From positions 96,001 to 160,000 of IMG/VR virus record IMGVR_UViG_3300045988_171772: a DNA stretch of 64,000 bases. One strand, given 5' to 3'. The notes beneath the pieces were generated by a model that was not told where the DNA came from, did no database searches, and saw nothing but the letters and a program-made list of their open reading frames with translations. The DNA comes from a virus. The position numbers and the translations under genes are program-made. Shown here piece by piece: positions 6,373 to 43,299 of the stretch (positions are counted from its first letter, which is position 1; the number at the start of each line of letters is the position of its first letter).

Positions 6373-6415
6373 ATGCAGGGACTTGAAAGAAAAAATCAAG
6401 TCCCTGCATTTTTAT
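6373..6415 (+). terminator. rho-independent terminator
   Basis: ATGCAGGGACTTGA (6373-6386) pairs with TCAAGTCCCTGCAT (6396-6409), followed by TTTTTATTTT. Confidence 0.8.
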
Positions 6416-6449
6416 TTTGATTTCTCTAAAGGAAAGGAATGAATTTCCT

Positions 6450-6998
6450 ATGGAATTAAAATGCGTAAAAATGAATCCAGAAGCACAGGATTTATATCGG
6501 TCTACTTCTGGATCTGCTGGATATGATGTCTCTATCTGTGATAATAGAGAACTTGATATGATTCGCAAATGGGCCAGAGAGAATCCCAAGCAATTGATCA
6601 AGTATCCTAAGATGACTACCATTGGTGGAGCTGTTGGTGGTCAATATTATCCCACCTATCAATTCTCTATTGAACCTGGAAAAAGTGCTACCATTCATAC
6701 TGGATTGGCAGTAGAGATACCCGAAGGATATGTAGGTCTGCTGGTAGCTCGCTCTGGTATCTCCAATCACTATGGGATTACTCCCAAGGATTGTATTGGA
6801 ATCATTGATTCTGATTATAGAGGAGAATTGATGGTCCATCTGGTCAATGACTCGGATCAGGAGTATTTCCTCTCTAAGAATGAGAGAGTATGTCAATTGG
6901 TAATCACTCCGTATATTGCTCCGGATATTGTCTATGTTGACAAACTCTCGGAGACGGAACGAGGAACGGGAGGATTTGGATCTTCTGGATCCAATTAA
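6450..6998 (+). CDS. dut: dUTP diphosphatase (trimeric dUTPase)
   Basis: All five trimeric dUTPase motifs are present: GSAGYD, ARSG, GIIDSDYRGE, RVCQLV and RGTGGFGSSG. There is an extra segment of about 35 aa after motif I. Confidence 0.9.
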   Translation: MELKCVKMNPEAQDLYRSTSGSAGYDVSICDNRELDMIRKWARENPKQLIKYPKMTTIGGAVGGQYYPTYQFSIEPGKSATIHTGLAVEIPEGYVGLLVARSGISNHYGITPKDCIGIIDSDYRGELMVHLVNDSDQEYFLSKNERVCQLVITPYIAPDIVYVDKLSETERGTGGFGSSGSN

Positions 6999-7005
6999 AG
7001 AATCT

Positions 7006-10993: not shown

Positions 10994-13900
10994 TTAATAG
11001 GAAGCGATCTTAGCATAAGTAGACCGGAGATTTCCTCTACCGAGACTATCACTATTCAGACCATTATTCAGAGTGGACAGCTTTTGTTTAGCAGAATCTT
11101 TTGCACTCTGCTTTCTCTGGGTGTCACTCTTCTTACCTTCCTTAGAGGCATTCGTATTCTTACCGGTTTCCATCTTCTTGGTAGTACCACCAAGAGCACC
11201 ACCAGAGACCATGTTACCAGTATTGTCACGAATGTCAGTGAGCAGCAGAATCATCTGATCCAGCTTATCACCACTATCAGAAATAGTAGTTTCAGCATCC
11301 TCAGGTCCGCGACCCAGAAGCGGATAATCCTTATAGGCTCCACCCTTAGGCAGCTTCTCCTGAGCTTTCTTTCTTGCAACCTGCTGCTGATAGTAGGCCA
11401 ATTTCTTTTCTTCCATCGTATTGCCAGGCATAGAAGCAAGAATCTTGGGATCAGGTTCTTTATCCATACCCATACCATATCCGACAGAAGTATCGGTGGC
11501 AGTACCATTTGCAGCAGCATTCTCCTCTGCAGCTTCTTCATCAGCCTTGACCTGGTCATAACTCTTACCAGAGATGACAGAATTCATGACACGAGTGCCA
11601 ACCTTATTGAAGATATTACCCACAGAGTTGAAGATTGCATTGAAGAGGTTGGTAGCAGAAGGAGATTCGGATTCACCTTCAGCACCAGTAGTTCCAGTTG
11701 TGGCTCCTGCCGTAGCAGTACCATCTGTAGCACCCGTAGTAGCGCCGGAAGCTCCAGAAGCAGATACCGACATGCCACTAGAGACATTGGGATCCAACTG
11801 TCCAGAAGCACCCTTGCCATCCGGAGTTTCTATAACCTGAGCCCAGTGCATCGGGTTAATAGAACTCGCTGTGGGAGCCCAAGCAGTCTGTGCCGTAGAT
11901 CCTTGTCCATAGGGAGGATTCGGAGCATACGGGTCATTGATAATGATATTGCCATTGGCATCCAGTCCAGTAGCAAGCACGCAGTGAGAACCACCCATTC
12001 CGTACTTGTACATGTTGCTATTATTGCCAACACCGTACATCATAACCATCTTTCTCTGCTTCAGAGCAGAAATAATGGTATCGAGATACTGCGTACCGTC
12101 AACAGTACCAGCGGACTGAGAGCCATTCGCAGGATAACGAGTTACCTTAACGCCAGCCTTCTGCAGGTTGGAGATGGTAGCAGCGTTACCATATTGATTC
12201 AGGAATGTACCAGGGTCAATGGCATTACCAGTAATGGTAGAAGCAGCCATTGTACCAGAGGTATGAACGCATCCAATAGAACCAATAGTTCCTTTATAAG
12301 GAGGCAGGTTCATATTGGAGTACGAGTTACCATTCTGTGAGAAGTAGTAAGCTCCATGCTGAATGGTGGTACCATTATCCTTCACCACATTGGCAGGAGT
12401 CGTACCAGAAGCAGATACTGTGGAGCCTTCGCTTGCCATAGTACCCATTGCATGAGCACCACCCAGTCTCTCCATAGAGTAAGCATGAGTAGCTCCATTC
12501 TGAAGCATACCAGGTGATACCACAGAGGATCCTTCACCATCATCCACGGTATACATACCATCAGGTGTACGACCTGTGACAGTAACGATGTGACCCGCTT
12601 TGGTATAAAGAGAATCACAAGAATTACATCCAGATCCATAACCCATGGATTTACCAGAGACAATGACAGGATTTCCATTATCCAGAGATGCATCCAAAGA
12701 ATCCATCCCGGAGATTTCAGTTCCGGACATACCATATTTACGAGCACCTTCTGTGAAGAGCTTCGCATTGGCACCTCCATCTGTCAACATACCATTTCTT
12801 CTGGCATATCTGCCCACTTCACCAGGATTGGCATTACCGCCAGCTGCATTCACAGCATTCGCCAGTGCAGTAGGTCCACAACCAGAATTGGCCATATTGG
12901 CAGGAGATCCATCCGGAAGAGTACCGAGACTCAAAGAAGCATAAGAAGGATCATCTTGCTTCAGACCACCAGGTCCATAGCCAAGAGCTCCTCCACCATT
13001 TCCAAGAGATGCTCTAGAAGACTGCTTGTTAGCTTCTTTTGCAACGCTCAGAGATGCAGTCATATTGTCTTTCTTGTTTTGCTGATATCTCTTGCTAGAA
13101 GTATCTGTTCCTGATCCATATCCTTCAGTATTAGCAGCAGTGGCGGTTTCTTCGTCCTGCTTCTTATTACCTCCAAATATACCAGAGAACCAGTTACTTA
13201 CAGCCTTACCAGCTCTCTTAGCAGCACCGATTACTCCATTAACGGCTTTACTGCCGATAGTCTGATTCACAATATCATTATATTCGGTAAGAGACAAATC
13301 TTCTTCTGTAAGATTATTATCTTTCAAATATTGCTGATATTCTGCCTCATACTCACTCTGCTTTTGGTCAATGGTCTTAACACCTTTCTTTTCAAGACCA
13401 AAGACTTTGTAGATGAGCTCGTAAATGACTTCGGCGAGTTCTCTCTTGAAATTGGGCAAACCAATAAGCTCACAGATACTAGAAACCAGATCGAATGCAG
13501 GACCGACAAAGGGAAGGTACTCGACAAGAAGGCTGATAATAGCAGATACAGTTCTCATTCCAATATCAACATCGTCTTCGGATATCATGAAAAGATTCGC
13601 AGCATCCAAAGCACCAGAAGCTACTGTAAAGACGCCTGTAATAACTGCACCAGCAGTCTTCAGAGCCTGCCCAGCAGTGCTTGCATTGAATTTTGTGATC
13701 AATTCACTGATCTGTGTAGCAAACTTTGTATTCTTTATTGCGGTCTTCAGATTATTGAAGATTCCAGAAATGAAATCCTTAATCTTCTTAACCAATTCAG
13801 AAGGTTTTACATCTTTCAGAAGTTGTTTAAGAGGACCACAATTTGCAAATTTATCAAGAGCTTCCGTCAGCATATCCAGGAGATTTGTCAGAGACTCCCA

Positions 13901-16900
13901 GACCTTGCTTCCGTTGGTACTTGCCCACTTTGCTGTAGTGAAATCTGCCGCCTTCTTTGTTTTTGTAGCCAAGAATCCTGCGCCTTTTTGAGCCAGGCCA
14001 GTCAGGCCTCTTCCTACAGTGGCAGTACCCTTACCAACAGCTGCAGTTGCTTTACCGAATTTTTTGATAGATTTGACAATCGGAATATGATCGGTTACAA
14101 AATCGACACCTTTTCCTACCCAGGAAAGCGCTTTACCGGCTTTACTACCCTTGACAGCAGCTTTCGCAGCTCCATAAGCGTTCGATGCCTTAACACCGAC
14201 ATCGTGAACGACATCAGCAGCTGTCAAAACTGCCCCACCGGCTTTATTCACAAGAGTACCACCGGCTTTGAAACCAGCTCTTGCTAGATCTCCATCTGTA
14301 CCAGTAACTGCAGTTTGAGCTGCCTTCCTTCTGACAAAATTCGGAATCATCATGCCTCTTTCAGTATTGACGGTAGCAGTAACGACTTCGTTACCATTTT
14401 CGTCAACTCTGGTACCTGCACCGACATAGTCAGGATTCAACTCTTCCATTTCTTCCTTGGTGAATTCTTTAGTGTCTCCACCAAGGACGAATTGACCGAG
14501 GAAATCACCAACCTTATCTCCGATACCTTCAATACCATCCATGATGGCACCACCGATACCTTTTGCAAGAGCACCACCGAGAGAGATAACCGCTTTACCA
14601 AGTACCTCTCCCAAAGTACCGATCAGTTTTCTACCAGTCTCAGAGTTCAGAAGAGCAGCCACAGTGGTAATACCACCAATAGCAAGACCAGCTTTCTTGA
14701 GGATATCCCCAATTCCGCCTTCTTCCTCTTCTTCCTGAGCAACCGCGTCACCTTCAACAGGTTCTGCCTTACCAGGTTCTTCATCTTCTTCACCGGTAGA
14801 ATCCTTCACTTTATCTTTACCCTGAGCCTGAATAGAAGCAGTTTCTTCTGCTTCTCTCGCTCTTCTCTGAGCATCCGCAGCATCTGCTTTGTCCTCATTA
14901 GCCGCAGCAGTCTTTCTTCTATGCTCAGTTTCGGCGATCTCAGCTTTATTTTCTTCTTCTTGCTGCTTAGCTTCTTCAGCCTGATCCTGCATCTTTTGCT
15001 TTTTCTTCTCAATAGCAGCATTGACAGCATTGATGATAGCAGAAGCTTTATCAGAAGCAGTATCAATCAGAGATTCATCCAGAGGAATACCAAGAGTAGC
15101 AGAGATTTGACCCAAAGCAAGAGCAATCTGATTCTTACGAGTCGCTTGTGCTTCTGCTTTTTCTTTCTCTTCTTCTACCTTCTCTGCAGCAATACGGTCA
15201 CGTTCTTGGAGCTCTTTCTTGAAGGCCTCCTGGTTCTTCATCCACTTATCAAAATCTTCTTTATTCTCGATTCTGTTATAAGTTTCATCGATGATGTTAC
15301 CTTCGGCATCCCGTTCAAGATACTGCTCAACGTCTTTCCGTCTCTTTGCATACTCTTTATCAGTCAGATCCTTAGCAGCGTAAGCATCCTTCCGATTATA
15401 TTTACTGAGCACACTATCGAGACGATTTTGTCTCTTACTATTCTGCTTTTCTGCACGATATTTGGCAAATCCAGTCAGGCCAGCAAGAGCTTGCTCTTTA
15501 TTATTAATGAATTTCTGGTAATTCTTTCCGATATACTCATTGAGAGCATTGGGGTCGATCTGACCATTCTCATCTCTCGGAAGAGCATTCCAGGCTTTAT
15601 CCTTGACATTACCGTTTCGATCCTTAGGAAGCAATTCTTCCATAGCAGCTTGTCTTTCCATAGGATCGACACTCTGCATTCTAGACTGAATATCATCCAA
15701 TCTATCTTTCTCATCTTGATACTGAGCTCCATAATAGGATTCAGCACCCTGAGCCATAGAAGATTTAAATGCTCCGATTCTAGCACGAATTCCACCCTTC
15801 TGAGTGACAGCGGATTTCGCACTATCCTTCAGATTTCCTAAGAGACCATGTCTAACATAACCAGCTCTAGCTCCCCAACGAGCATTCCTTCTCGCTCGTC
15901 TCTGACCTCTGAGGTTCTTTAAGAACTCAAGAGGATTCTCTGCATTTCTACTATTCCAGAGATCAGCGATGAGTTGAGTCGGTTTCGCTGCAATCCATGT
16001 AGCAGCTTTAGCAGCAGTCTTCAGTGCGAACGCTCCACCTTTGACAGTGGCACCCAACATAGCACCGGTAATCTTGACAATCCCATTATTGAGAGCCTGC
16101 ATAGGATGGGTAATAATGGAAATCACATTCTTACCAACATTCTGGATGGTTTCAACCATGGACTTTGTCACAGGATTTTTCAGTCCCATGTCTCTGAAGG
16201 CGGCTACAATAGGAGCAAACTGAGCTTTCGCATAGCTTGCAACTTCATTCTTGACAGAGTCAAAAGAAGACTTCAGAAGATTCTTTCCTTCTGTCTGAAG
16301 CATGTTTGTCCACTGACCGACCATACCAGTCTTCTCAACATGGACAACTCCATTTTCATCTACTGTCTTTGATCCAAAGAAGAGTCTCTTGAAATCAAAT
16401 CCAGTAGTAGCGATACCCACAGTAGCACCAAGAATGGCACCACCAATAGGACCACCGGGAAGGAAGAGAGAACCTAAGACTCCACCAATACCTGCGCTCA
16501 TAGCAGTTCTCTTGGTAAAACCTACCTTAGCTTTGATCTTCTGCCACAGATTTGCTGCGATTTCCTTACCATCTGTAAAGACATCTTCCACCGCTTCCGC
16601 AGATTTATTCAGCTCATCAATAGCGATATTGATCGAGGCCTTGGTATCTTTCTCTCTATTCTTATCCTCGGATCTTCTTCTAGAAGCTTCGTTGGTATTG
16701 GATCCAGGTCTTCTTGCATTCTGGTTATTGGCTCTACGAGCAGGAGCACCACCGAGTCTCTCACCATTACCAAGAGCTCCATTATCATTATTGGTATTAT
16801 CAGAAGGAGCATTCGGATCCTTACCAGTCATTACCTGAGTGGATTTATCTCTCACCTTCTGCTTGAAGGTACGAGTATCCTTAGGCTTCTTCTTGATTTC

Positions 16901-19318
16901 ACCTTGACTATTCAGAATAGACTGATCATTCTGCCACTGGGTATTTCCATCTCTGGGGATTCCTTGTTTATCCATGGGATAAATATCAGATCCACCAGGA
17001 GGTTGCAGATTGGCATCTCGATCGGTACCTTTAACGACTCTATCATCATGATCAATCGGCTTGATGATATATTTCTTACCATCCAGGACGATATTTCTTC
17101 TCTTTACGACACGAAGGCATCCAGGTTTACCATATCGATACTTCAATACAGCCAAACCGAATAATCCATCTTTGTCACCAGATTTATCAGCGGTGATAAA
17201 ATCGTATTGATCCGGATTGTAGGCATTATTCCGCATGATGTTCATCACATCAGCGACAGTCAGATGATCATATTCATACTTACTGACATTCTTCTTGAAG
17301 GAGCTTGCAACTCCCAAGACACCACCAGTAGTATCAACTGTATCATATCCTGAAATAAGACCGATCAATCCCAGACCAGCAGCTTCCACTTTAGAAGCAG
17401 CTTTGTTTCTCGTGTAAGTGGTACCGACACCTTCACTAGCAGCATATTTGATATTTTCGATATATCGATTCTTCTGCTTATTAGAGGCAAAGACAGTACC
17501 CTTTGCACGATCCATCAGCCTCTTGGTTTCTTCTGCAGCTTCCTCAGCTTTCTTCTTGTCTCTCTCCTGTTTTCTAGAGAGATCAGTAGCAGTATAAGAA
17601 GTACCAAGATCTTCCGGGCTAAATCCACCTTTGATAAAACCAAACTGGTTGGTTTCTCTCCGGTTAAATAGCTCGGATTCAGATTCTGTGAGTTCCATCT
17701 GCATCATATACTGACGCAGTTTTGTCACAGTTCCTTTGAAATAAATGACCAACTGAGAAATCTCAAATGGATTAAATCCCAGTTTCTCGAGTTCTTTACC
17801 ATAGGCTCTAGCAGCTTGGGTAAGATTCTTCTCTCCTTCGAGAGTTTTCTCACCATAGATCATAGGTTGCAAATGCTTCCACATGATCTTCTTTGCTTCA
17901 TCCTGTAAAGCCTCGTCATCCTGGAATTTACTTTCAAAGAAAATATTCGATTCAGCAGAAGCTCCACGGAATGCATCTGATGTGCGAGCTCTCAATCCTT
18001 CTCGAATCTGTTTCTTGTCCTTGAATGTCCCGGCGTCATAATCATAGAAGACGGGTTCCTTAGATCCTTTCCTCTTGGGAATATTCGAAGTATTCGCTTC
18101 GATCATTGCCAAGTAATGAGGAATGACTACCTCAAGAGCTCTCTTGGATTTACCATCCCAAGGAACTGCTCCCTTATAGTATTTCCCTAACTGGAAAGAA
18201 TCTTGCTTTCTTGCTCCAGCTCCTAACAGCTGACCAAGCATTCCTTTGATTCCGGATTCATTCCGCATGTCAGAAAGAGTCGATAATCCGCCCATCAAAG
18301 CCTGAGGAAGCAGATCATCGACTTTTGTGATAGCCTTCTGAATCTTCTTCGGAATCAATTTCTTCATTGCAGCATTCATGAGCATCTGAGTAGGCCGAAT
18401 CATAGATTTCGGTCCACCCATACCGCCCATCATATTTCCCATCATGGAACCCATACCCAGCATCATCTGCAGTTCAGACAGAGACGAGCTATTCTGGAAA
18501 TTCTCTTTGACGACGGAAATGTAGGAGGGAAGATCGAAAGAACCACCTGCCAGGAATGCATCCATAGCAGGAGTCTTACCCTTCTTCTTGGAGGGCTTAT
18601 ACATCTCCATCTGGACTTTCATGAAGGCATGAGCTGACTTCAAATAATCCAGATGTGCCTGGTTTACCTTACTCTGGTTATCATTCATGAATTTCACGAT
18701 ATTAACCAGGTTGGTATTGATCTGATCCAGGCGTTTATTTGTCTCTGTCAGAGAAGCACCCAGTTTATTGACTGCAATCATTCCGATGTTATTCGTCGTA
18801 TTCATGATTGCTTTGGCAGTATTTACCTGGGCCATCATCTGAGCCTTAGAGGATCTCTCTAATGTCTCAGCGATTCGATTGCTTCCTTCCAGGCTAACTT
18901 TTGCAGTTGCTTTCGCATCTGTGCTAAGATTTAATTTACGAACTTCCACACCACTCTCATTTTGATCTTCTGAGGTGGTGTAGTCACTTGAATCGAAATC
19001 AAAATCGTCACTACCAAAAAGATCACCAAAGTCATCCTTGGGAGTGGCGAAGTTACCGGTTTTGATATCATTGATCGTACCTTCAATGATATCATTGGCC
19101 TGCTTTTGAAGTTCTGTATAGTTGAGAGCACGATCGACTTGCTTACCTTTGGCACGATAGTCGCTCATGAAATCTCTCAGCTTATAGATTTCATCCGCAG
19201 CATCTTCTGTAATCTTGGTAGTATTGGGTGCTACCTCGGTCAGTACGTCCTTGGCAGAGTAACCAATCGACTTACCAAAATTAGCAAGCCAAGATGCCAC
19301 GCTATTTAAACGAGCCAA
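10994..19318 (-). CDS. giant virion or ejection / tape-measure-like protein with two C-terminal papain-like cysteine peptidase domains
   Basis: 2774-aa ORF with a TTG start. Contains a Gly/Met-rich stretch (GMGSMMGNMMGGMGGP), Gly-rich hydrophobic segments and a long Lys/Glu coiled-coil. First peptidase: SGCGPTALANA...GHIVTV (Cys codon 12878-12880). Second peptidase: GSIGCVHTSG...GSHCVLATG..NDP (Cys codon 12269-12271). Confidence 0.85.
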   Translation of the reverse strand: MARLNSVASWLANFGKSIGYSAKDVLTEVAPNTTKITEDAADEIYKLRDFMSDYRAKGKQVDRALNYTELQKQANDIIEGTINDIKTGNFATPKDDFGDLFGSDDFDFDSSDYTTSEDQNESGVEVRKLNLSTDAKATAKVSLEGSNRIAETLERSSKAQMMAQVNTAKAIMNTTNNIGMIAVNKLGASLTETNKRLDQINTNLVNIVKFMNDNQSKVNQAHLDYLKSAHAFMKVQMEMYKPSKKKGKTPAMDAFLAGGSFDLPSYISVVKENFQNSSSLSELQMMLGMGSMMGNMMGGMGGPKSMIRPTQMLMNAAMKKLIPKKIQKAITKVDDLLPQALMGGLSTLSDMRNESGIKGMLGQLLGAGARKQDSFQLGKYYKGAVPWDGKSKRALEVVIPHYLAMIEANTSNIPKRKGSKEPVFYDYDAGTFKDKKQIREGLRARTSDAFRGASAESNIFFESKFQDDEALQDEAKKIMWKHLQPMIYGEKTLEGEKNLTQAARAYGKELEKLGFNPFEISQLVIYFKGTVTKLRQYMMQMELTESESELFNRRETNQFGFIKGGFSPEDLGTSYTATDLSRKQERDKKKAEEAAEETKRLMDRAKGTVFASNKQKNRYIENIKYAASEGVGTTYTRNKAASKVEAAGLGLIGLISGYDTVDTTGGVLGVASSFKKNVSKYEYDHLTVADVMNIMRNNAYNPDQYDFITADKSGDKDGLFGLAVLKYRYGKPGCLRVVKRRNIVLDGKKYIIKPIDHDDRVVKGTDRDANLQPPGGSDIYPMDKQGIPRDGNTQWQNDQSILNSQGEIKKKPKDTRTFKQKVRDKSTQVMTGKDPNAPSDNTNNDNGALGNGERLGGAPARRANNQNARRPGSNTNEASRRRSEDKNREKDTKASINIAIDELNKSAEAVEDVFTDGKEIAANLWQKIKAKVGFTKRTAMSAGIGGVLGSLFLPGGPIGGAILGATVGIATTGFDFKRLFFGSKTVDENGVVHVEKTGMVGQWTNMLQTEGKNLLKSSFDSVKNEVASYAKAQFAPIVAAFRDMGLKNPVTKSMVETIQNVGKNVISIITHPMQALNNGIVKITGAMLGATVKGGAFALKTAAKAATWIAAKPTQLIADLWNSRNAENPLEFLKNLRGQRRARRNARWGARAGYVRHGLLGNLKDSAKSAVTQKGGIRARIGAFKSSMAQGAESYYGAQYQDEKDRLDDIQSRMQSVDPMERQAAMEELLPKDRNGNVKDKAWNALPRDENGQIDPNALNEYIGKNYQKFINNKEQALAGLTGFAKYRAEKQNSKRQNRLDSVLSKYNRKDAYAAKDLTDKEYAKRRKDVEQYLERDAEGNIIDETYNRIENKEDFDKWMKNQEAFKKELQERDRIAAEKVEEEKEKAEAQATRKNQIALALGQISATLGIPLDESLIDTASDKASAIINAVNAAIEKKKQKMQDQAEEAKQQEEENKAEIAETEHRRKTAAANEDKADAADAQRRAREAEETASIQAQGKDKVKDSTGEEDEEPGKAEPVEGDAVAQEEEEEGGIGDILKKAGLAIGGITTVAALLNSETGRKLIGTLGEVLGKAVISLGGALAKGIGGAIMDGIEGIGDKVGDFLGQFVLGGDTKEFTKEEMEELNPDYVGAGTRVDENGNEVVTATVNTERGMMIPNFVRRKAAQTAVTGTDGDLARAGFKAGGTLVNKAGGAVLTAADVVHDVGVKASNAYGAAKAAVKGSKAGKALSWVGKGVDFVTDHIPIVKSIKKFGKATAAVGKGTATVGRGLTGLAQKGAGFLATKTKKAADFTTAKWASTNGSKVWESLTNLLDMLTEALDKFANCGPLKQLLKDVKPSELVKKIKDFISGIFNNLKTAIKNTKFATQISELITKFNASTAGQALKTAGAVITGVFTVASGALDAANLFMISEDDVDIGMRTVSAIISLLVEYLPFVGPAFDLVSSICELIGLPNFKRELAEVIYELIYKVFGLEKKGVKTIDQKQSEYEAEYQQYLKDNNLTEEDLSLTEYNDIVNQTIGSKAVNGVIGAAKRAGKAVSNWFSGIFGGNKKQDEETATAANTEGYGSGTDTSSKRYQQNKKDNMTASLSVAKEANKQSSRASLGNGGGALGYGPGGLKQDDPSYASLSLGTLPDGSPANMANSGCGPTALANAVNAAGGNANPGEVGRYARRNGMLTDGGANAKLFTEGARKYGMSGTEISGMDSLDASLDNGNPVIVSGKSMGYGSGCNSCDSLYTKAGHIVTVTGRTPDGMYTVDDGEGSSVVSPGMLQNGATHAYSMERLGGAHAMGTMASEGSTVSASGTTPANVVKDNGTTIQHGAYYFSQNGNSYSNMNLPPYKGTIGSIGCVHTSGTMAASTITGNAIDPGTFLNQYGNAATISNLQKAGVKVTRYPANGSQSAGTVDGTQYLDTIISALKQRKMVMMYGVGNNSNMYKYGMGGSHCVLATGLDANGNIIINDPYAPNPPYGQGSTAQTAWAPTASSINPMHWAQVIETPDGKGASGQLDPNVSSGMSVSASGASGATTGATDGTATAGATTGTTGAEGESESPSATNLFNAIFNSVGNIFNKVGTRVMNSVISGKSYDQVKADEEAAEENAAANGTATDTSVGYGMGMDKEPDPKILASMPGNTMEEKKLAYYQQQVARKKAQEKLPKGGAYKDYPLLGRGPEDAETTISDSGDKLDQMILLLTDIRDNTGNMVSGGALGGTTKKMETGKNTNASKEGKKSDTQRKQSAKDSAKQKLSTLNNGLNSDSLGRGNLRSTYAKIASY

Positions 19319-19364
19319 TTATGCTTCACCACGCTTTCTTTGGCTTTAAGCATTAAAAAGCTGT

Positions 19365-19385
19365 TAAAATAGCGCATTTTGAGGG
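19365..19385 (-). promoter_or_regulatory. candidate promoter variant (CCTCAAAA-N-TATTTTA)
   Basis: The minus strand reads CCCTCAAAATGCGCTATTTTA about 45 nt upstream of the TTG start of the giant gene. It shares CCTCAAAA with the 10929 site but lacks AACACC. Confidence 0.25.
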
Positions 19386-19400
19386 CCTAGGAGCTTATTA

Positions 19401-19470
19401 TGAGAAATTTAAATGAGGATACCCAGATATGTCAGTGTATGACATCGGATATCCTCATTTAAATTTCTCA
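19401..19470. terminator. long perfect hairpin (21-bp stem)
   Basis: TGAGAAATTTAAATGAGGATA (19401-19421) pairs with TATCCTCATTTAAATTTCTCA (19450-19470). The loop contains a small inner hairpin, ATGTCA/TGACAT. Confidence 0.7.
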
Positions 19471-20875
19471 CAATCAAATCCATCAAGAGAACCTACTCCT
19501 ACAATCATCCCGCCTATCTATATCAATGGGAAGATCTTCTTCCTTCTCCTATCTACTATCTAGATGATCAGGATACTCAAAGAGATTCTCTTCTGTATGA
19601 TAATCCTATAGAATTACTATCTTCTCCTCTATATAGAAGATCTGTCTTCTGGTACCATGAATTTCTATAGTATCTATTTCATTCTCGTTGACTTCCTATA
19701 GAAAAATACAGGGTCTATTTCCAAAATCCTTACTAGAGATACATCCTTACTCATGAAGGAGTATCCTCCATCTCTATAAAGAGTCTCTTCCTTTCCTCTG
19801 ATATCCATCTATAAGAAATATACAAACTTTCTATCCAGAGATTCTATTTCTATATCAATCCTTCCAGATTCTAGATCCAGGTAAGGGTGTCAGTGCTCAT
19901 GAAATATGTCTCTTTATCAATAGTCTGATATCGATCTCTATCTATAAATATTCCACTTTCGAATATCTCTATTAGATATCATCCTTCATACGCATTCTAT
20001 CTATATCCTAGAATTCGAGTGCCACAACAAACGATTCCTATTCTATAAGAAGAATTTGTATCTGGATGAATCTATCTATCGATATTCTAATCATAGGATC
20101 TCTATAAGATAAAAAATCAGTATTCTCGTTCTATTCATATCGATCCATATCTCATTTCTTAATCACACTATCTATCACTAGAATCCTTCTTGATTCATAA
20201 GAGACAGAATATCCTTCTAGAAGAATTTCTATATCCTCATAGAAGATAAGAGATTCCATTCTGATTCTCTCTATAAAGAAGATTCCACTCTTTCATTTTG
20301 GAATCTATCTCTATTGGAGATTTCTTCATAGTCTCTATACTTCTCTATCCTCAGTCTAAGAGAATGCCTTTGATTCTATAGAAATCTGATAGTAGATTCC
20401 TTCTCTATCTATAAGAATTGATTCAAGCAATCTATCGATATCAAATTCCAAGTCTCTCTTCTCATCCTTCTTCTAGTATAATAGAAAAGAATTCAGGTTC
20501 TCTTCTGCTATCCATAGAATCAGATTCAGAAAGTAGGATTTGTATTCTATTAGCATTTCTTCAATTGTGAGAATCTAAGAAATATTTTGTATATAAAAAA
20601 GACCAGGTATAATACTTAGTCTACATCTGAGAGGAATTGATCTAAGAAATCTATCAATTTGTATTCTATCCAACCAGATAGAGTACCACTCTATGATCAG
20701 ATAGAATAGTACCTCTCAGAAGGAAGGTGTAGATTCTTCATCTATCTTATTAGACTTCTCCTACTGATCGATCCACCTTCTGGAATTATCTCAGATAATC
20801 TCTTATATAGAGCTGAGACAATCGACACCATGAGTACCACTCATATGTCAATCGATTATGATTATGTCTCTCTTT
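19471..20875. repeat. ORF-free island with a dense degenerate TCTAT / TCTATARGAA motif array
   Basis: No ORF of 60 aa or more in any frame across 1.4 kb. A hand count gives about 36 TCTAT on the top strand (19517-20745) against about 9 ATAGA. About 12 copies extend to YCTATARGAA. The top strand is pyrimidine-rich. Confidence 0.8.
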
Positions 20876-20933
20876 AAGGAAAAATAAAGGATACCAGAAA
20901 TACAGAGATTCCCAGTATCCTTTATTTTTCCTT
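20876..20933 (-). terminator. long perfect hairpin (19-bp stem) downstream of the 64-aa gene
   Basis: AAGGAAAAATAAAGGATAC (20876-20894) pairs with GTATCCTTTATTTTTCCTT (20915-20933). Confidence 0.75.
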
Positions 20934-20942
20934 ATTTAGACT

Positions 20943-21137
20943 TCATCGATCTTTACGTACCACATATTTCAGAGGATTCATACGGATAAAAGGATTGTCC
21001 GTATAAATCACATAATGGGTACTATGTAACCCTCTTTGTGCCTTCATTACATAAGGGCGATTTTTATAATCCGGAAAGTTTTGAATCAGATCTTCAGGCA
21101 TCTCGTTCATGAAATGAACTTCCAAAGTCATATTCAT
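20943..21137 (-). CDS. hypothetical small protein (64 aa)
   Basis: AGGAGGG lies 5 nt upstream of the ATG. Hairpins flank it on both sides. TGA stop. Confidence 0.6.
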   Translation of the reverse strand: MNMTLEVHFMNEMPEDLIQNFPDYKNRPYVMKAQRGLHSTHYVIYTDNPFIRMNPLKYVVRKDR

Positions 21138-23844: not shown

Positions 23845-24140
23845 CTCCGTGATTGCAGTAGAAGAATGTAGTTATTCTTCATCACTTGTGTGTTATACCC
23901 TTTATGACATTTAAAGTATTTCTGATGCTGGTCCGTCGATCTATCCAACACCAGTTTCTCATGAATCCAATATAATTATATATAGAAATTTTCTCATTCT
24001 CCGAGTTGAGATTTATTGACTTCTGGAGAATGAGAAAAAGACAAAAGAAATCCCTCCATAATGAGTTTTGATCTCACTATGGAGGGATTACCAACCGGCT
24101 CGTGCTTCACCTTTGTTCCAATCGTACATAGCTTGGCCTC

Positions 24141-24587
24141 CTAACCTTGATGTATTTTAACATCTGGCGTATGACATAACGTACAAACACGCATGGGATA
24201 GTATCGCAAGAACGCGTTCAAATCATGGCTAGCAATGGACTTGTACGAAACAGCCAAACATAGGAAGTCCCAGATGAATAAATCGATCCAGTATAAGATC
24301 CATTGCTGGCCATATTCACCAATGCGCAATCGTCTTGACATAGCATCAAGACGCCGTTGTAACGGGTCATATGAAAAGACGTAACGTGTCCTTTGTTTTG
24401 AGTATACCTCACAATGACTTATGGAAATGAAGAGATGAAATAGAATGAAGCCAGTTTCCATGAATGGACCTATCGCGATCTCATCGCGAGATGATTCCTC
24501 ATATACTGTCATGAAAATTAGGAGTTGCGCATAAACAGGATAGCGGCATATAATAATGCGGCGATTATGCGATGTAAATGATACCAA
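24141..24587 (-). CDS. questionable ORF in a GC-shifted segment (two hydrophobic stretches)
   Basis: 148-aa track ORF with no convincing RBS. It ends in TAG, which is otherwise almost unused. A terminator-like hairpin (24049-24089, then a T-run on the minus strand) lies downstream. Confidence 0.3.
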   Translation of the reverse strand: MVSFTSHNRRIIICRYPVYAQLLIFMTVYEESSRDEIAIGPFMETGFILFHLFISISHCEVYSKQRTRYVFSYDPLQRRLDAMSRRLRIGEYGQQWILYWIDLFIWDFLCLAVSYKSIASHDLNAFLRYYPMRVCTLCHTPDVKIHQG

Positions 24588-25052
24588 TTGGATCCAATAT
24601 CAATATCTCGGCTTTCTGCATATGCCTCCATGTACCAAACCAAAGATCTATGAATTACTACAGCTATCGGACAAGCCGGAACATGTCAACGGCTCTAGTC
24701 GGCAGGACATGGTGATCAACCGCCAGACGTTACAAAGCGATCCTGTAATTGCAATCACAGATACTATTCAAGGTTATCCTCATTCTCGTTTTCTAAGAAT
24801 AAGTGCAGCATGTCCCTAGGAGTAAAGAATGATAGAAGCACGAAAACCTAAGATAGACTTTTGGATATAACTATCACATGAGGTTGTGACTACCTAGTGT
24901 GATAGCTAGATATCATACATACATTCCCATTCTGTATAGGAAGAATTACGGTCCATCATAATGACCAAGTAAGTCTTTTTGAGACTTCTCAATCATTACC
25001 TTTTATGTTACACGTCGTTACCATTTTTAATCATGCTTACAGACGAGGCTAG

Positions 25053-25071
25053 AAAAACACCCTGATAAAGT
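25053..25071 (+). promoter_or_regulatory. candidate promoter, AAAACACC-N4-TA class
   Basis: AAAAACACCCTGATAAAGT lies 35 nt upstream of the ATG at 25106. Confidence 0.4.
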
Positions 25072-25105
25072 TTAGCCTATACACACTAGATATGAGGTGA
25101 CGCAA

Positions 25106-28100: not shown

Positions 28101-29293
28101 CTGGTATGACTGGTACCATTGCGATCTCTACTTCTCCTGATAGAAATGTCGGTGTTTCTAGACAGCTTACACTGGATCCGAACATCGTCTCTGTCAGAGG
28201 ATACATTGGAGATCATGATGAGGATGCGATCCGGGATATGAAGGGAGCCAATCTCTTCTCTCCTGCTGAATTGCTTTCTCCTCCTGGTGCTATGCATGAT
28301 GATAGTCAGCGTACGGCTATGGCCTATAAGCAGACAAAGTACATGGTCTTGACGGAGGGATCTTCTCCTGTCTTGATGGGTAATAAGGTAGAAGCTGCAT
28401 TGCCCTACTACCTGTCTAGAGACTACACAGTCGTAGCACAAGAAGATGGTAAAGTGGCTGCCATTGAGAATGATCAGGTCATCATTCAGTACAAGAATGG
28501 TCGATATGATTCCTTCTCTCTGGTACCGAAACAGCAAAAGAACTCTGCGGGTGGTTTCTACATCGAAGCGTCTTTCCAGACAGATCTCAAAGTTGGAGAT
28601 AAAGTCAAGAAAGGTGAAGTCGTTGCCTATAACCCCAGAGCCTTTACCAAGAATAAAGATGATCTGAGTGCTTCTATGAATATCGGTGTCCTTTGTAAGA
28701 TGGCAATCTGTCCTACATTTGACGAATATGAAGACTCTGCTCCTATCACGACTGAGCTGTCTAAGAGACTTGCTACTGTCATGGTACATGAGCAGAGAGT
28801 AGTATTGTCTAAGGACGCCGTAGTCTATATGATGTCTAAGATTGGTCAGCATGTCGAAGTTGGTGATTCTCTCATTGAGTATGATAACTCCAATGAAGAT
28901 CCCACTATGGCAGAATTGTGGGCCAATATGGCAGAGACATATGGAGAAGCTCTTACAGATGTCGCCATTACCAAATTCAAGTCTGAATTCTCTGGTGAGA
29001 TTACCAATATCAAGATCTACTCTGCTGTGGATGGAGAAGAACTCTCTGACAAGTCTCTGAGAAAGATCGTCCAAGATTATTGGAATACCATCAAGAAGAG
29101 AAATAAGACTCTGGAAAAATACCGGAATCCCGATGATCCTAAGTTCATGCCTTGTGGACAGCAGATCACAGAAATTCCTGGTAAGGTAGAAGCAAAGTTT
29201 GGGAAAATCCTCGGCGAAAATGTCGGGGATGGTGTCCTCTTCTGCTTCTATATCAAACACAAAGATATCGTCAAGAAAGGCGATAAAGTCACT
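25106..29293 (+). CDS. multisubunit RNA polymerase beta-like subunit, exon 1
   Basis: GAGGTG RBS before the ATG at 25106. KGPSGIGLEQALTLPKRSFNPGMTGTIAISTSPDRNVGV parallels the beta motif LGPGGL...R..H....G.ICP.ETPEG.N.GL. HDDSQRTAMAYKQTKY parallels (E)HDDANRALMG.NMQRQA. The exon ends ...KKGDKVT at a codon boundary. Confidence 0.85.
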
Positions 29294-29633
29294 GAGAGAA
29301 AATGGCCGTTTAATTGGTGACTCTAAACCCATTTAACTGCTGGAATATCTCGCTAGGTCTTTACTACTCTAAGGAGTGATAATGTAAAGAATAGAGACAA
29401 TCAGCATCCAAGATCTTTCTTATATAAGAAGGATAAGGTTCATCGACTATCGAAAGCATAGTCTATAGAGAAATCTATAGACGAAGAAGCGAGTAGAGTA
29501 CCGAGTATCTTCCTACACATTGATTCTCTCCAAGAAGATACTTCTGGGAAAAGGTGGGCAATTCTATATCTGGTAACTAGGATATAGAATTGAAGATATA
29601 GTCAGGCCTCATAGAGATATGAGTGGAGAAAAG
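29294..29633 (+). ncRNA. group I self-splicing intron (340 nt, no internal ORF)
   Basis: P1: exon AGTCACT pairs with GGTGACT (29316-29322), with a terminal U-G wobble. P10: exon 2 AATTA pairs with TAATT (29311-29315). J8/7-P7 block AAGATATAGTC at 29593-29603. P9 hairpin with GAGA loop. Last nucleotide is G at 29633. Confidence 0.8.
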
Positions 29634-29846
29634 AATTATACGGCCTTGAAGGGTATCGTATCCAATGTCATTGATCCTGGATATGAACCTAGATCTGAAT
29701 ATAGACCCGATGAAGAGATCTCTATTCTGATGGCACCCGGAGCTGTTCTTGCTCGTAAGACTCCTTCGGTCATTCTCTCAATGTTTACCAATAAGGTGAT
29801 CATTGAATTGAAGAGACATCTAAAAGAAGACTATCTCGGGGAATAA
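29634..29846 (+). CDS. RNA polymerase beta-like subunit, exon 2
   Basis: NYTALKGIVSNVIDPGYEP...ISILMAPGAVLARKTPS continues the beta motif GDK..(R)(H)G.KGV.S....EDMP....DI.LNP.GVPSRM. Joining to exon 1 keeps the frame (1399 + 70 aa). TAA stop, then a hairpin. Confidence 0.8.
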   Translation, partial: NYTALKGIVSNVIDPGYEPRSEYRPDEEISILMAPGAVLARKTPSVILSMFTNKVIIELKRHLKEDYLGE

Positions 29847-30002
29847 ATAAAAAGATAATAAGGAATGTATGCACAGACGCATACATTCCTTATTATATTA
29901 ATAACCGACAATCATCCCACCGATGTATAATGTACCATTACCAGCATTATATGTTACATTCACATCATATTTATAGGTACCAGATTGTCTCTTTAAAGTA
30001 TT

Positions 30003-30024
30003 CTATAACTATAAATAGTTATAG
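30003..30024. repeat. perfect palindrome CTATAACTAT-AA-ATAGTTATAG
   Basis: 10-bp arms with a 2-nt spacer, in an ORF-poor intergenic stretch. Member of the CTATAG-type palindrome family. Confidence 0.6.
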
Positions 30025-30547
30025 TGCCCTAGTTTATAAAGATAGAATTAGGGAGTAATTCCATAGTAAAGTAATGAGTAAATAGGAAAATGACAAAGTT
30101 TGAAAATCCTATATCTCGTTTTACATTTTGTCTGGTATGTTTTACAGAATGTCACATATATTTGACATTTTAGAAATGGTAAAATGAGTAATTCTAAGAA
30201 GAATCTTGAAGTAATTCGAGTATAAATAGAATACCGAGTAATGATTCTAGATCTATTTCTGTCTAGTTTCATTACTCGGTATTCTATTATCCATGTGATT
30301 ATTAACCTCCAATTTAGAAAATTAAAGATTGGAGAGTGATACCAATAAGATATCTCTCGAAAACACTTTAACTTCCTTAAAGAAGGTGTACCTGGAGGAT
30401 TGAATCTCCAAATGGTGCACCTTCTTTTTATCGATTTGAAAAGTCAGAGATATTTCTCTATATATTATTCCTATGATTATGATGAGTCAAATTAGCCATG
30501 GATTAACCTCGCTTTTGTAATTTAATGAACATTTGGAGGAAATACCT

Positions 30548-30835
30548 ATGACAAATGACATCTGTAGATTTTCAACTAAATATGATATCACCAATATCAT
30601 ATATTCTATAGATCCTGATTATGAGAAGACGCATAATCGGGAGATATACCTTATATGGTATTATGGTCGGGAGATTCTCCCAGGTCATGTAAACTTTGAG
30701 TATACCAAAGGAACGAATCAGCTGTACCTGATTCCAACCTATTATAGAAATCCTGAATTTAGAAAATTGTGTCACCAATTTCCTGGGTTTATGGATCTTT
30801 ATAATGATACTCTTAGAAGATATAACTTAAGTTGA
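30548..30835 (+). CDS. hypothetical small protein (95 aa)
   Basis: ATG at 30548 follows TGGAGGA. The N-terminus ICRFSTKYDITNI is paralogous to the ORF start at 36391 on the minus strand. Confidence 0.5.
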   Translation: MTNDICRFSTKYDITNIIYSIDPDYEKTHNREIYLIWYYGREILPGHVNFEYTKGTNQLYLIPTYYRNPEFRKLCHQFPGFMDLYNDTLRRYNLS

Positions 30836-30980
30836 TGCACAATCTATCTGTCAAGTATTCTTCAAAAATGCCATTAACGTTAAAAAGCGATTGAGCAACT
30901 CATCATAATTAAAGAAGGTGTACCAGATGGATTACTATCCCAATGGTATGCCTTCTTTTTTATTTTATAAACCTAGTGGA

Positions 30981-31002
30981 CTATAGTAATTTATTACTAT
31001 AG
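30981..31002. repeat. perfect palindrome CTATAGTAAT-TT-ATTACTATAG
   Basis: 10-bp arms. It overlaps the 3' end of the CCTAGTGGACTATAG motif (30972-30986). Confidence 0.6.
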
Positions 31003-31105
31003 ATATAGAAGAGGGAGATTACTATAATCACTATGGGGATCGTTATTATAGTAATCCCTCTCTTCTCATTGATTTGTATATTCCTAACTAGATTGTGAGG
31101 GATCT

Positions 31106-31609
31106 TTGAAGTTGGCTACTTATGTAAGAAAACTCAAGGATCGTAGTGGGAATTATATAGTACCTGCAACTCGATCTACGGGAGTGTATCTGAATGACAA
31201 TCAGACATTACAGGGTTGGATAGACAATATGGAAGATAAGAAGTTTGATCTTCTTACTGTCTATCCTGTAGGCGCTATCTTTCAATCTACTTCTGATGGA
31301 GTTGTCCAAACCGGTGGTGAGGCATCTCATACATTAACAACTTGGGAAATGCCTACTCATAATCACGGATTTGTCAATAACTCATACACACTTGGTAATG
31401 GCGGGACTGGATGGGAAGGAGATTTGAATCTGGTTATTGGTGGTCATGAAGACTATATCGTATGCTTCAAGACTGGACCTCTTGGAAGACCTAATGCGGC
31501 ATTCGCATCTTCATCTCAGCATAATCATACCATTGATGGTGGTAATGGAGGAGCTCATAATAACCTACCTCCCTATTATGCAGTGAATAACTGGAGAAGG
31601 ACTGCATAA
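31106..31609 (+). CDS. tail fibre/baseplate protein with phage tail-collar domain
   Basis: GGEASHTLTTWEMPTHNH...GGAHNNLPPYYAVNNWRRT matches the tail-collar pattern (HTLT..EMP.H.H ... H.N.PPY......W.RT). TTG start with a GTGAGGGA RBS. Confidence 0.7.
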   Translation: MKLATYVRKLKDRSGNYIVPATRSTGVYLNDNQTLQGWIDNMEDKKFDLLTVYPVGAIFQSTSDGVVQTGGEASHTLTTWEMPTHNHGFVNNSYTLGNGGTGWEGDLNLVIGGHEDYIVCFKTGPLGRPNAAFASSSQHNHTIDGGNGGAHNNLPPYYAVNNWRRTA

Positions 31610-32395: not shown

Positions 32396-32953
32396 ATGAA
32401 AAATGATCTGCTGGATTTCCTGATTGACGACGATAGCACTCCTGCTACCGAGAACGTCTCTCTGATCGATGACAAAGAAGGCATGGCCAGTGTTCTTCTG
32501 GCTGGCATTCAGGAGCAGTGCACTCCTGAGGAGTATGAGCAGATTGTGCAGGAGAATGCCAATCTGTGGGAGATCTATGGTCTGATTCCTGACGCCCAGA
32601 TGGTTGCCACTGAGGCTACCAAGAAGGTCGTCGCCAAGTACACCAAGTACAGCTATCTGTCCGCTGCTACCAAGCGTGCTGCGTTCCGACTGGCTCGTGC
32701 TGCTGGTGACCCGAACTATGCCAAGTATGTCAAGTACCGTGATCTGATGCGCCAGTATCGTGAGAAGGTTCTGGACAAGTGGAATAGCAAGGCCACTCGT
32801 GAAGCCAAGCGCATTCTGCGTGGTGCCGCTGCTACCGCTGGCTCTGTGAAGGATGCCCGTGGTAAGCAGATGGAGGACAAGATCGACAAGGCTCTGAAGC
32901 AGACCAATGCCGAAGGCCGCAATGGCAAGGCGATCCGTGCTCCGAAGCAGTAA
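32396..32953 (+). CDS. hypothetical protein, GC3-rich codon usage (probably abundant; Ala/Lys-rich helical)
   Basis: ATG at 32396 follows AAAGGAG. Codon usage resembles the capsid gene. TAA stop, then a 14-bp hairpin. Confidence 0.75.
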   Translation: MKNDLLDFLIDDDSTPATENVSLIDDKEGMASVLLAGIQEQCTPEEYEQIVQENANLWEIYGLIPDAQMVATEATKKVVAKYTKYSYLSAATKRAAFRLARAAGDPNYAKYVKYRDLMRQYREKVLDKWNSKATREAKRILRGAAATAGSVKDARGKQMEDKIDKALKQTNAEGRNGKAIRAPKQ

Positions 32954-32964
32954 GTAAAACATTT

Positions 32965-32999
32965 ATCCCCATATGGATACCAAAAATCCATATGGGGAT
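32965..32999 (+). terminator. hairpin terminator (CCATATGGAT family)
   Basis: ATCCCCATATGGAT (32965-32978) pairs with ATCCATATGGGGAT (32986-32999). Confidence 0.7.
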
Positions 33000-33544
33000 T
33001 TAATTTAGTAAAAACGAAAAAATAATGGTATGTATGAGATCCCCATATCATACATACCATTTGTGAAGACCCTATGTCAAGCTTTAATCAAAATACCGTG
33101 ACATGGCATCTACATAAAGCTTGAAACCTATGCAATGGTTATAGAATTCTTTGAAGTGTGGTTTCTTCATTGCACTTTTAACCAGATAGGTTTGGTGTGT
33201 ACCATCCAGATACTTGCGATCGTCACTCGAAGGATCCAGGAGGTTCACATAATTCCAAAGATGATACTTGAGAGAGAGTCTTTACGTCTCTCTTCTCGCA
33301 CATCAATGGATTTTACATAAAAAGATTAAGTCGGTAATTGACATGATTGGGTAATCAAACATGTTGGTTCATTCTTTCATGAATTAGATTCATGGAATCG
33401 AAGGCCATGCCAAATATCCAGGTCAGTCAAAACTAAAACTTCTGATGTAAAATAAGAGGGACTATTAGGATCTTCACAAATAAATAATATACAGAGATTA
33501 CGATTCGAAAAGCACCATCGTAATCTCTGTATATATGAAATTTA

Positions 33545-33580
33545 ATCACCCATATGGATATAAAAATCCATATGGGTGAT
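33545..33580 (-). terminator. hairpin terminator (CCATATGGAT family)
   Basis: ATCACCCATATGGAT (33545-33559) pairs with ATCCATATGGGTGAT (33566-33580). It has nearly the same core as the 32965 hairpin and lies downstream of the minus gene ending at 33612. Confidence 0.7.
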
Positions 33581-33611
33581 TTTGTCTTTATATATGAATC
33601 CAAGTATCGAA

Positions 33612-34010: not shown

Positions 34011-34060
34011 ATTGATCGATTCCTCCTTTAGTATACGAGTTTCTTGGATGCTAGGCGTTT

Positions 34061-34078
34061 AAAACACCACATTAAAGT
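34061..34078 (+). promoter_or_regulatory. candidate promoter, AAAACACC-N4-TA class
   Basis: AAAACACCACATTAAAGT lies about 20-30 nt upstream of the start at 34097/34106. Confidence 0.4.
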
Positions 34079-34096
34079 TTCAAGATACTAGGAGAG

Positions 34097-43275: not shown

Positions 43276-43299
43276 TCCCTAAGTTTAAGCACATCATAG

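Follow-up and report, generated by a model that had tools for sequence, protein, structure and literature searches.

A candidate late non-coding RNA unit in an AR9-like jumbo phage of the gut, with a conserved structured 5′ domain and a long imperfect hairpin

Several described RNA systems offer a comparison for a long non-coding locus in a phage. Sponge RNAs such as CsrB and RsmZ carry GGA motifs, and CrcZ carries A-rich motifs, in conserved copies that lie in loops or single strand. Adenovirus VA RNA I is a non-coding imperfect hairpin of ~160 nt from a eukaryotic setting, with PKR as its target, whilst ToxI-type RNAs consist of near-identical tandem repeats of 34-45 nt and lie beside, or target, the ToxN nuclease. 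The large (>0.6 kb) phage and mobile-element RNAs GOLLD, ROOL and HEARO, all in Rfam, contain covarying structured domains and are compact, multi-helix molecules conserved over their whole length. For the jumbo phages themselves, a 2026 review gives non-coding RNAs a single sentence, stating that phiKZ expresses some. Here, we consider a locus in a stretch of 64,000 nucleotides (the window), which spans positions 96,001 to 160,000 of the IMG/VR virus record IMGVR_UViG_3300045988_171772. The locus is an island without open reading frames (ORFs) at 19471-20875, which an earlier note made from the sequence alone had singled out for its flanking hairpins and its many copies of TCTAT on one strand. 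Our reading, to which we assign a probability of roughly 0.6, is that the island is a self-contained minus-strand unit for a non-coding RNA of ~1.45 kb, made up of a conserved 5′ domain followed by an imperfect hairpin of ~1 kb.

Genes for the beta subunit of a multisubunit RNA polymerase and for a large terminase split by an intron are present in the window, whose nearest isolates by tblastn, at ~29% identity, are the Staphylococcus phages S6, MarsHill and Madawaska, Bacillus phage PBS1 and Yersinia phage phiR1-37. It comes from an AR9/PBS1-like jumbo phage known from human and pig gut metagenomes. Full-length homologues of the giant protein encoded next to the island (49-96% identity) were found on contigs of 250-270 kb from human and pig gut assemblies, and the exact 64-aa protein encoded on the other side occurs in 315 index blocks of the assembly collection. 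The carrier group is uncultured but common, with human and pig gut assemblies that contain it numbering in the hundreds. JGI metagenomes contributed just three additional close-clade loci; no relatives were found among IMG/VR viral contigs with four protein queries or among GTDB genome contigs, and neither blastn nor megablast gave any similarity to GenBank phages. The loci compared here came from nine distinct close-clade contigs and five distant relatives (L006, L007, L020, L021 and L022), with close-clade diversity computed on 12 sequences. The ORF-free gap is kept at the same position in 14 of 14 relatives, at a length of ~1625 nt in the close clade vs 780-960 nt in the five distant relatives, and across clades it can be aligned at its two ends only, the left of these being the giant gene's promoter and 5′ untranslated region.

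The right-hand end of the island, at 20650-20858 on the minus strand, would specify a conserved structured 5′ domain, a block of ~210 nt with four helices, two of them GGU-loop hairpins. Its predicted elements are an outer stem, a GGU-loop hairpin, a variable hairpin, a long-range stem (CCAGAAGGUG/CACCUUCC) and an extended hairpin of ~20 bp, and it presents twin GGU-loop hairpins, AUGAGU-GGU-ACUCAU and AGAGU-GGU-ACUCU. A covariance model (R1) finds a single copy per genome in 20 of 20 sources, always at this locus, with scores of 136-189 bits. Across 26 pairs and 17 distinct sequences, 95% of the cells are paired and nine pairs are compensatory, a level which none of 500 shuffles reached and which compares with 37-55% in slid controls. 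The same holds for six divergent sequences, where 94% of cells are paired and 9 of the 26 pairs have changed on both sides (0 of 500 shuffles; slid partners 40-51%). Several of these pairs are G·U in some lineages and would read as C·A mismatches on the plus strand, and the plus-strand consensus fold is the weaker one (-7.45 vs -13.65 kcal/mol), with a covariation term near zero; both observations favour an RNA made from the minus strand. Two further hairpins of the domain differ in sequence from lineage to lineage and fold in all of them. MAFFT with RNAalifold failed to align these in register and single-sequence folding was used, with segment boundaries picked by hand, so the z-scores for these variable hairpins are optimistic. 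Within the close clade the nucleotide diversity (pi) of the domain is 0.020 against 0.051 for the body, a 2.5-fold difference.

We looked for this domain among described RNA families. A scan of the whole window at the gathering thresholds of Rfam 15 returned just two group I introns and two tRNAs. A permissive scan of 19300-21000 (E <= 5) gave chance matches only, mostly of microRNA and small nucleolar RNA models to the terminator hairpins, and nothing on 20650-20867. The earlier note had been unable to match the island to a described element; we found no Rfam family, GenBank phage record or paper that describes it.

Continuing in the direction of the minus strand, a linker at 20505-20649 with small local hairpins in the minimum-free-energy fold leads into the AUAGA-rich body at 19485-20504 (TCTAT on the plus strand), which is predicted to form a long imperfect hairpin with its apex near 20020-20025. 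Aligned with its own reverse complement, the body matches over ~940 nt at 61% identity, centred near 20020, with a score of 130 vs 21.7±3.1 for shuffles. When the whole body is folded in the sense direction it reaches -336.6 kcal/mol vs -290.3±9.0 for shuffles (z -5.1), with the antisense strand at z -1.7, and 238 of its 388 pairs span more than 300 nt vs 72 in shuffles. Folding in windows of 200 nt gave z ~0 on both strands and had led us to consider the body an unstructured tail, a reading that the whole-body fold and the self reverse-complement alignment overturned. Windowed folding scans can therefore miss long hairpins, a difference here of z ~0 against z -5.1.

The motif content of the island can be considered in the light of this fold. 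TCTAT occurs 36 times on the plus strand and its reverse complement ATAGA 10 times, close to the hand count in the earlier note (about nine for the latter), and the enrichment survives shuffling (36 vs 13.7±3.3, maximum 25, in 1000 dinucleotide-preserving shuffles of the island). The expectation of 3-5 copies given there is also in line with the window-wide background of 1.26 TCTAT per 500 bp, or ~3.5 per 1405 bp, and no 500-bp bin elsewhere in the window goes above 6. The longer form YCTATARGAA fared less well, with three exact copies on the top strand (19808, 20042 and 20408) and seven within one mismatch where about 12 had been claimed; the conserved core is TCTAT only, really ATAG on the other strand, and its flanks are weakly informative. 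The spacing is irregular, as reported, with a borderline periodicity of ~33 nt (power 7.5 vs a 95% random maximum of 7.0). On the sense (minus) strand ATAGA is found 32 times vs 12.1 expected (z 6.9), and TCTAT there is at expectation. The top strand of the island is G-poor (12%), and the sense strand is 56.6% purine with a GC skew of +0.26, where genes average 52% and +0.07. The body has 12% C on its sense strand, lower than every window gene (minimum 15.4%), and the GC content of the island is 31-35%.

Within the predicted fold, AUAGA positions are 79% paired vs 66% overall, with UCUAU, UUUAU or UCUGU as partners, and by our own reading of the partner list ~14 of the 32 AUAGA copies have a partner region in which AUAGA is found again. 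Once G·U pairs are allowed, RNA words such as CUAUAG and UUUAUAGA become self-complementary. Since YUAUAGA is self-complementary through G·U, the same word can be used on both arms of a hairpin in one orientation, and the one-strand excess of TCTAT would arise because the same purine-rich word sits on both arms in that orientation. The excess is thus most likely the DNA shadow of self-pairing, C-poor RNA words like YUAUAGA, and a helix made largely of A-U and G·U pairs would agree with the low C content of the sense strand.

The distant relatives allow the fold to be judged apart from the sequence, given that their bodies cannot be aligned with that of the window, or with each other except for L007 and L020. 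All six lineages (the window and the five distant relatives) keep a body of 450-1170 nt despite complete sequence turnover. The five distant bodies fold in the sense direction with z of -2.6, -5.4, -6.5, -4.0 and -4.3 and an excess of long-range pairs, and in antisense with z of 0.06, -0.37, -2.84, -0.35 and -0.19. No DNA-level palindrome is detectable in L006 and L021, so the pairing there exists at the RNA level only. Between L007 and L020 (79% identity), double changes mapped on the L007 structure keep the pair in eight cases and break it in one, and on the L020 structure keep it in 10 and break it in 6. In the L021 body, which cannot be aligned, ATAGA again heads the over-represented words of the sense strand (8 vs 1.7 expected).

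The edges of the island resemble those of a transcription unit. In the AR9 transcriptome report (PMC5312081), the late promoter is given as AACA-N6-TA/G and is read by the non-virion RNA polymerase (nvRNAP). AAACA-N6-TAA, which agrees with that consensus, lies 34-51 nt upstream of at least 10 window genes; examples are at 4200, 25056, 34063 and 58033 on the plus strand and at 59752, 19365, 10922 and 2535 on the minus strand. There are 14 consensus late-promoter sites in the window and none inside the island, and a scan of both strands found neither a consensus late nor a consensus early promoter within it. The sequence nACA-N6(7)-TAATC immediately precedes the structured domain in all clades. 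In the window this is the candidate late (nvRNAP-type) promoter GACA-TAATCA-TAA at 20853-20868 on the minus strand (box at 20868-20856, putative start at ~20857), and positions 20853-20875 are invariant in the 12 close-clade sequences. The box begins with G in the window and reads TACA, CACA or AACA in relatives, with an N7 spacer in L020 and L021, and in view of this first base and this spacer we call it no more than a candidate promoter. Sigma-70-type promoters are no more frequent than by chance, and their relevance is doubtful in a phage with an RNA polymerase of its own. One box of this type was spotted by eye on the plus strand of the linker; it is not listed by the promoter scan and differs in its second hexamer in relative L003.

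At the opposite end of the unit, the hairpin at 19397-19474 on the minus strand would terminate the non-coding RNA, judging from its fold (19395-19480 at -45.5 kcal/mol, z -11.5) and from equivalents in relatives. Every clade has a strong hairpin immediately ahead of the giant-gene promoter, and in L007, L020, L021 and L022 a T-run comes after it, solely on the sense side, so that an intrinsic terminator in the sense orientation lies 3′ of the unit, as expected of an AR9-type late unit. The other hairpin, at 20876-20933 (20870-20940 folds at -34.6 kcal/mol, z -8.2; pi 0.015 in 12 close relatives), is the minus-strand terminator of the upstream late operon of 203-, 431-, 188- and 64-aa genes and has a shape usable in both directions. 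Both hairpins are long and near-perfect, in keeping with the earlier note, but such structures are not special to the locus: the window holds 55 inverted repeats with arms at most 40 nt apart, mostly terminator shapes of the form AAAAAG-stem-CTTTTT, this design is seen at many gene ends of the genome, and the two that flank the island are ordinary terminators bounding the unit. The giant gene has its own late promoter (TTAACAGCTTTTTAA) at 19353-19367 on the minus strand, which matches AACA-N6-TAA and lies ~45 nt before the start codon, and the island is therefore not its leader. This promoter box and the 5′ untranslated region are conserved in all clades, and pi is 0.004 over 19319-19400. Read along the minus strand, the order is upstream-operon terminator, promoter-like box, structured domain, body, terminator and giant-gene promoter. 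The suggestion in the earlier note that a minus-strand RNA could be made here is in this way supported by inference, through the promoter-like box, the G·U pairs of the 5′ domain, the sense-only folding of the body in six lineages and the sense-oriented terminator.

Among the described systems, the late units of AR9 and PBS1 have a promoter consensus that stands before many window genes. The island resembles them in pairing a near-consensus 5′ box with an intrinsic terminator on the 3′ side, but the first base of the box is off consensus and the unit lacks an ORF; by keyword look-up, the AR9 transcriptome report (PMC5312081) yielded no comparable long non-coding unit. The likeness to sponge RNAs lies in the many short purine-rich words on one RNA strand (the ATAGA excess above), and the pattern AnAnAnA is also enriched in the island (36 vs 19 in dinucleotide shuffles). 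Hfq is known to bind (AG)n and A-tracts in Gram-positive bacteria (PMC3287200, PMC3505971), and we considered an (AN)n pattern of the Hfq type as a feature of all clades but rejected it, its enrichment being confined to the window clade and L021. The island differs from sponge RNAs in that its motif copies are mostly paired (79%) and individually not conserved. The sponge RNA listed in the earlier note would not be an unstructured one of single-stranded repeats, as most copies lie inside the ~1-kb hairpin and often pair with each other.

Like GOLLD, ROOL and HEARO, the candidate RNA would be large and would contain a covarying structured domain, but its conservation extends over ~210 nt only, with the rest a variable hairpin. 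VA RNA I too is an imperfectly double-stranded hairpin encoded by a virus in a dedicated unit, and a function based on shape may fit the fast sequence turnover seen here; the island hairpin is ~1 kb and belongs to a bacterial host, and the comparison is an analogy only. ToxI RNAs and the pseudo-ToxI of phages share with the island a repeat-containing phage non-coding RNA with clusters ~30 nt apart, but no tandem repeat is detectable here. Iteron origins and centromere arrays share same-orientation short repeats in an AT-rich, ORF-free stretch, but the island lacks both repeat units of 11-43 bp and a tandem array, and neither a Rep nor a Par gene lies next to it.

Several points weigh against our reading and need careful consideration. 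Transcription itself, its late timing, its start at the box and the ends of the RNA are all inferred from sequence, a minimum-free-energy fold of 1.1 kb is approximate, and the box replaces an A of the consensus with G, T or C and has an N7 spacer in two lineages. Within the close clade, the body has a pi of 0.049-0.051, near that of four-fold sites in the neighbouring genes (0.054-0.058). AUAGA copies are retained there like random 5-mers (0.821 vs 0.821, p 0.53), losses to gains of the motif stand at 27:6, indistinguishable from a neutral 6.7:1 (p 0.25), and pair-keeping substitutions at predicted pairs number 62 vs 71 expected. There is, then, no selection signal on individual motif copies or predicted pairs within this clade. 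The AUAGA excess is absent in three distant clades (L006, L007, L020 and L022), so the motif itself is not universal, and an old inverted duplication under strand-biased substitution could mimic sense-favoured folding in one lineage.

These same data give their weight to the best-surviving alternative, which we consider doubtful overall but a serious rival for the body. It holds that only the 5′ domain of ~210 nt and the box are functional, as a small RNA or a cis element, and that the ~1.1-kb body is a dispensable, neutrally decaying inverted duplication, perhaps built from repeats of ~33 or ~134 nt, with the TCTAT/ATAGA excess and the C-poor strand as by-products of history and strand-biased substitution. 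Beyond the neutral-looking diversity, motif retention, loss-to-gain ratio and pair substitutions, and the four relatives without AUAGA excess, this account draws on the observed substitution spectrum, which roughly predicts the excess of G over C, and on hints of old duplications, given by direct self-similarity between stretches ~110-160 nt apart and by peaks in the motif distances at 133-134 nt. It has more difficulty with the distant relatives: a body of 450-1170 nt has been kept in six lineages despite the turnover of its sequence, sense-only folding exceeds shuffles in all six bodies, L006 and L021 included, for which independent neutral duplications would be unparsimonious, double changes between L007 and L020 are compensatory in 8 cases with 1 broken, and ATAGA is the top word in two bodies that cannot be aligned with each other. 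Our own view is that selection acts weakly on the overall shape and leaves the sequence free to turn over.

It may instead be that the island acts as DNA, with the same-orientation TCTAT array and the palindromes ATCGAT, CTATAG and TCTAGA bound by a phage or host protein at a replication origin, partition site, packaging start or nucleoid-protein sink, and this we regard as improbable. The motif falls into 27 clusters, with spacings of 27-57 bp, mostly ~30, over 19937-20431 and the borderline periodicity of ~33 bp mentioned above; the di- and trinucleotide signature shows a large degree of reverse-complement symmetry (r 0.62), the density of ATCGAT exceeds that in the remaining window 4.7-fold and those of CTATAG and TCTAGA 5-7-fold, and terminators on both sides of this AT-rich region would shield it from read-through. 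However, there are no repeats of iteron length, with Tandem Repeats Finder reporting none even at score 30 and the direct-repeat families being scattered, of 2-3 copies and 70-90% identical, and just a 5-mer is common to the sites. Single sites are conserved no better than background, with losses and gains that look neutral, and the motif is missing from several relatives which keep the gap. No gene for a cognate binding protein is recognisable nearby (the neighbouring proteins have no initiator- or partition-type match in Pfam or PHROG, and the 64-aa neighbour has no fold match), and the locus shows no GC-skew switch. The G·U-dependent, sense-only folding and the covarying 5′ domain are, moreover, properties of an RNA which a site in duplex DNA does not explain. 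The protein-binding array listed first among the possible roles in the earlier note is disfavoured on these grounds.

A slightly less probable idea again is that the transcript serves as a replication primer or forms an R-loop, by analogy with ColE1 RNA II or the T4 oriF and oriG transcripts, with a purine-rich RNA hybridising behind its structured 5′ domain to the pyrimidine-rich template and opening an AT-rich region. The promoter-like box, the structured 5′ domain, the purine content and skew of the sense strand (56.6% and +0.26) and the GC content of 31-35% would all suit such a role, but self-pairing of the body competes with the template hybrid, the candidate promoter is of a late or non-early class, the unit ends at a strong terminator with no obvious processing site, and there is no skew inflection at the locus. 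Nor does this idea account for the signals that depend on G·U pairs and appear in the sense direction only.

Decay of a former protein-coding gene, or coding in an alternative code, is a very improbable account of the island, and the option is rejected. Its GC skew does have the sign of the neighbouring minus-strand genes, and in some relatives gene callers do report an ORF of 80 aa at the left edge, but that call starts inside the hairpin, is shortened to 44 aa in the window and owes its many prolines to a pyrimidine-rich strand. ORFs in 19471-20875 reach 50 aa at most (in keeping with the earlier description of the island as ORF-free), TAA, TAG and TGA are each frequent and present in all six frames, which argues against another code, no ORF is carried in the corresponding gap by any relative, near or distant, comparison with the relatives by tblastn and tblastx, which took in two extra genes in L022, finds nothing, and the C content of the body is below that of all window genes.

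The genes on either side of the island are both on the minus strand, as the earlier note stated. The downstream neighbour (10994-19318) encodes the giant protein of 2774 aa with a Peptidase_C39_2 domain (Pfam E 7e-15). Its middle part, at ~16300-18500, is hypervariable among genomes that are 95-98% identical, with invariant columns falling from ~0.95 to 0.25-0.6, which would fit a host-interaction region or a recombination hot spot. The upstream neighbour (20943-21137) encodes the 64-aa protein, which is conserved across clades and belongs to a family confined to this phage group, with four homologue clusters. A confident model of it (predicted local distance difference test score 88) has no fold match in the Protein Data Bank, and the idea that it is an RNA-binding protein proved uninformative for that reason and given the four clusters. 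In L022, the most distant relative, extra genes of 221 and 97 aa lie between the small conserved gene and the non-coding unit (L022 1173-2146). Since the structured domain is still present after these, the link between the RNA unit and the 64-aa gene is not a fixed one.

Other observations concern short words in the island and elsewhere in the window. The self-complementary hexamer ATCGAT has six copies in the island, a density 4.7 times that of the window, at 19930, 20078, 20139 and 20434 in the body and at 20767 and 20851 in the 5′ domain; the two domain copies are conserved, with mutual pairing predicted in several lineages, and those in the body could permit alternative or intermolecular pairing. 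AACA is almost missing from the 1.5 kb of the island, with one copy on the plus strand and none on the minus strand, and CTATAG is intergenic in 17 of its 24 occurrences in the window, counting sites inside both introns. The AR9 early promoter, AAATATATATTAT-N6-G, is resembled by a candidate early-promoter motif in the window, TCTCTR-TATATTAT-N6-(G/A), with six sites (30461, 49983, 51501 and 53603 on the plus strand, 33491 and 31636 on the minus strand), of which five are intergenic on a crude gene map and most lie directly upstream of genes. As this motif starts with TCTCTAT-like bases, we considered whether the island might be a degenerate array of such early promoters and rejected this, since the TATATTAT core is in register at none of the island sites, the best of which carry one mismatch.

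The description of this genome as tightly packed with genes holds in part only, as the crude gene map leaves other gaps of 0.75-1.26 kb at 23845-25096, 29846-31106, 32953-34097 and 43275-44041. The first of these (1.25 kb) has no convincing ORF and separates two divergent late promoters, that of the 203-aa operon and that of the RNA polymerase beta gene. Most of its 100-column blocks are 80-97% invariant across six close genomes, with two dipping to 0.66-0.76, only its two ends align with distant relatives, and it could hold another non-coding element. The gap at 29846-31106 has 29-33% GC and several long palindromes, and that at 43275-44041 carries three CTATAG sites. The two group I introns (Rfam RF00028) are at 29280-29624 and 37800-38119 (75 and 81 bits), the former at the end of the 1407-aa RNA polymerase beta-like ORF and the latter interrupting the large terminase gene (36729-37778 / 38160-39629). 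A gene with the dUTPase/dCTP-deaminase fold lies at ~6400-7000 (called at 18348-18896 in L001) and, together with the AR9-like polymerase and promoters, raises the question of uracil-containing DNA in this phage.

Returning to the reading of the island as a minus-strand RNA unit, the non-virion RNA polymerase of the phage would start at the late-type promoter-like box, at ~20857, and transcribe the structured 5′ domain of ~210 nt that is conserved in every relative. It would then transcribe the fast-evolving body, which may fold back into the imperfect hairpin of ~1 kb, and would stop at the hairpin at 19397-19474, just ahead of the promoter of the giant gene. Our best guess is that the product is a stable, abundant and imperfectly double-stranded RNA with a protein-binding handle in its twin GGU-loop hairpins. 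An RNA that acts by being bound is suggested because there is a dedicated unit among late structural genes, a conserved twin-loop handle and a duplex that keeps its shape. We speculate that, late in infection, it would serve as a scaffold or decoy by binding or diverting an RNA-binding or double-stranded-RNA-processing factor of the host or the phage. More tentatively still, the locus may represent an undescribed class of jumbo-phage long non-coding RNA in which a conserved 5′ handle is joined to a fast-evolving, G·U-rich hairpin of 0.45-1.1 kb built from wobble-self-complementary words (YUAUAGA in this clade), made late by the phage polymerase, acting through its shape and capturing a host defence or RNA-processing factor, for instance as a double-stranded-RNA decoy or scaffold.

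Little is known of the non-coding RNAs of jumbo phages, and this locus provides a concrete, testable candidate in a common gut lineage. On the evidence of sequence comparison, what would be new is a phage-encoded structured non-coding RNA with an unusual modular architecture. If our reading is correct, the 5′ domain would be a new structured RNA domain for the family databases, and an excess of a short motif on one strand of a phage 'desert' may be explicable as the shadow of RNA words whose self-complementarity depends on G·U pairs. It would also mean that AR9-like phages devote a late unit of up to 1.45 kb to an RNA that keeps its shape and not its sequence.

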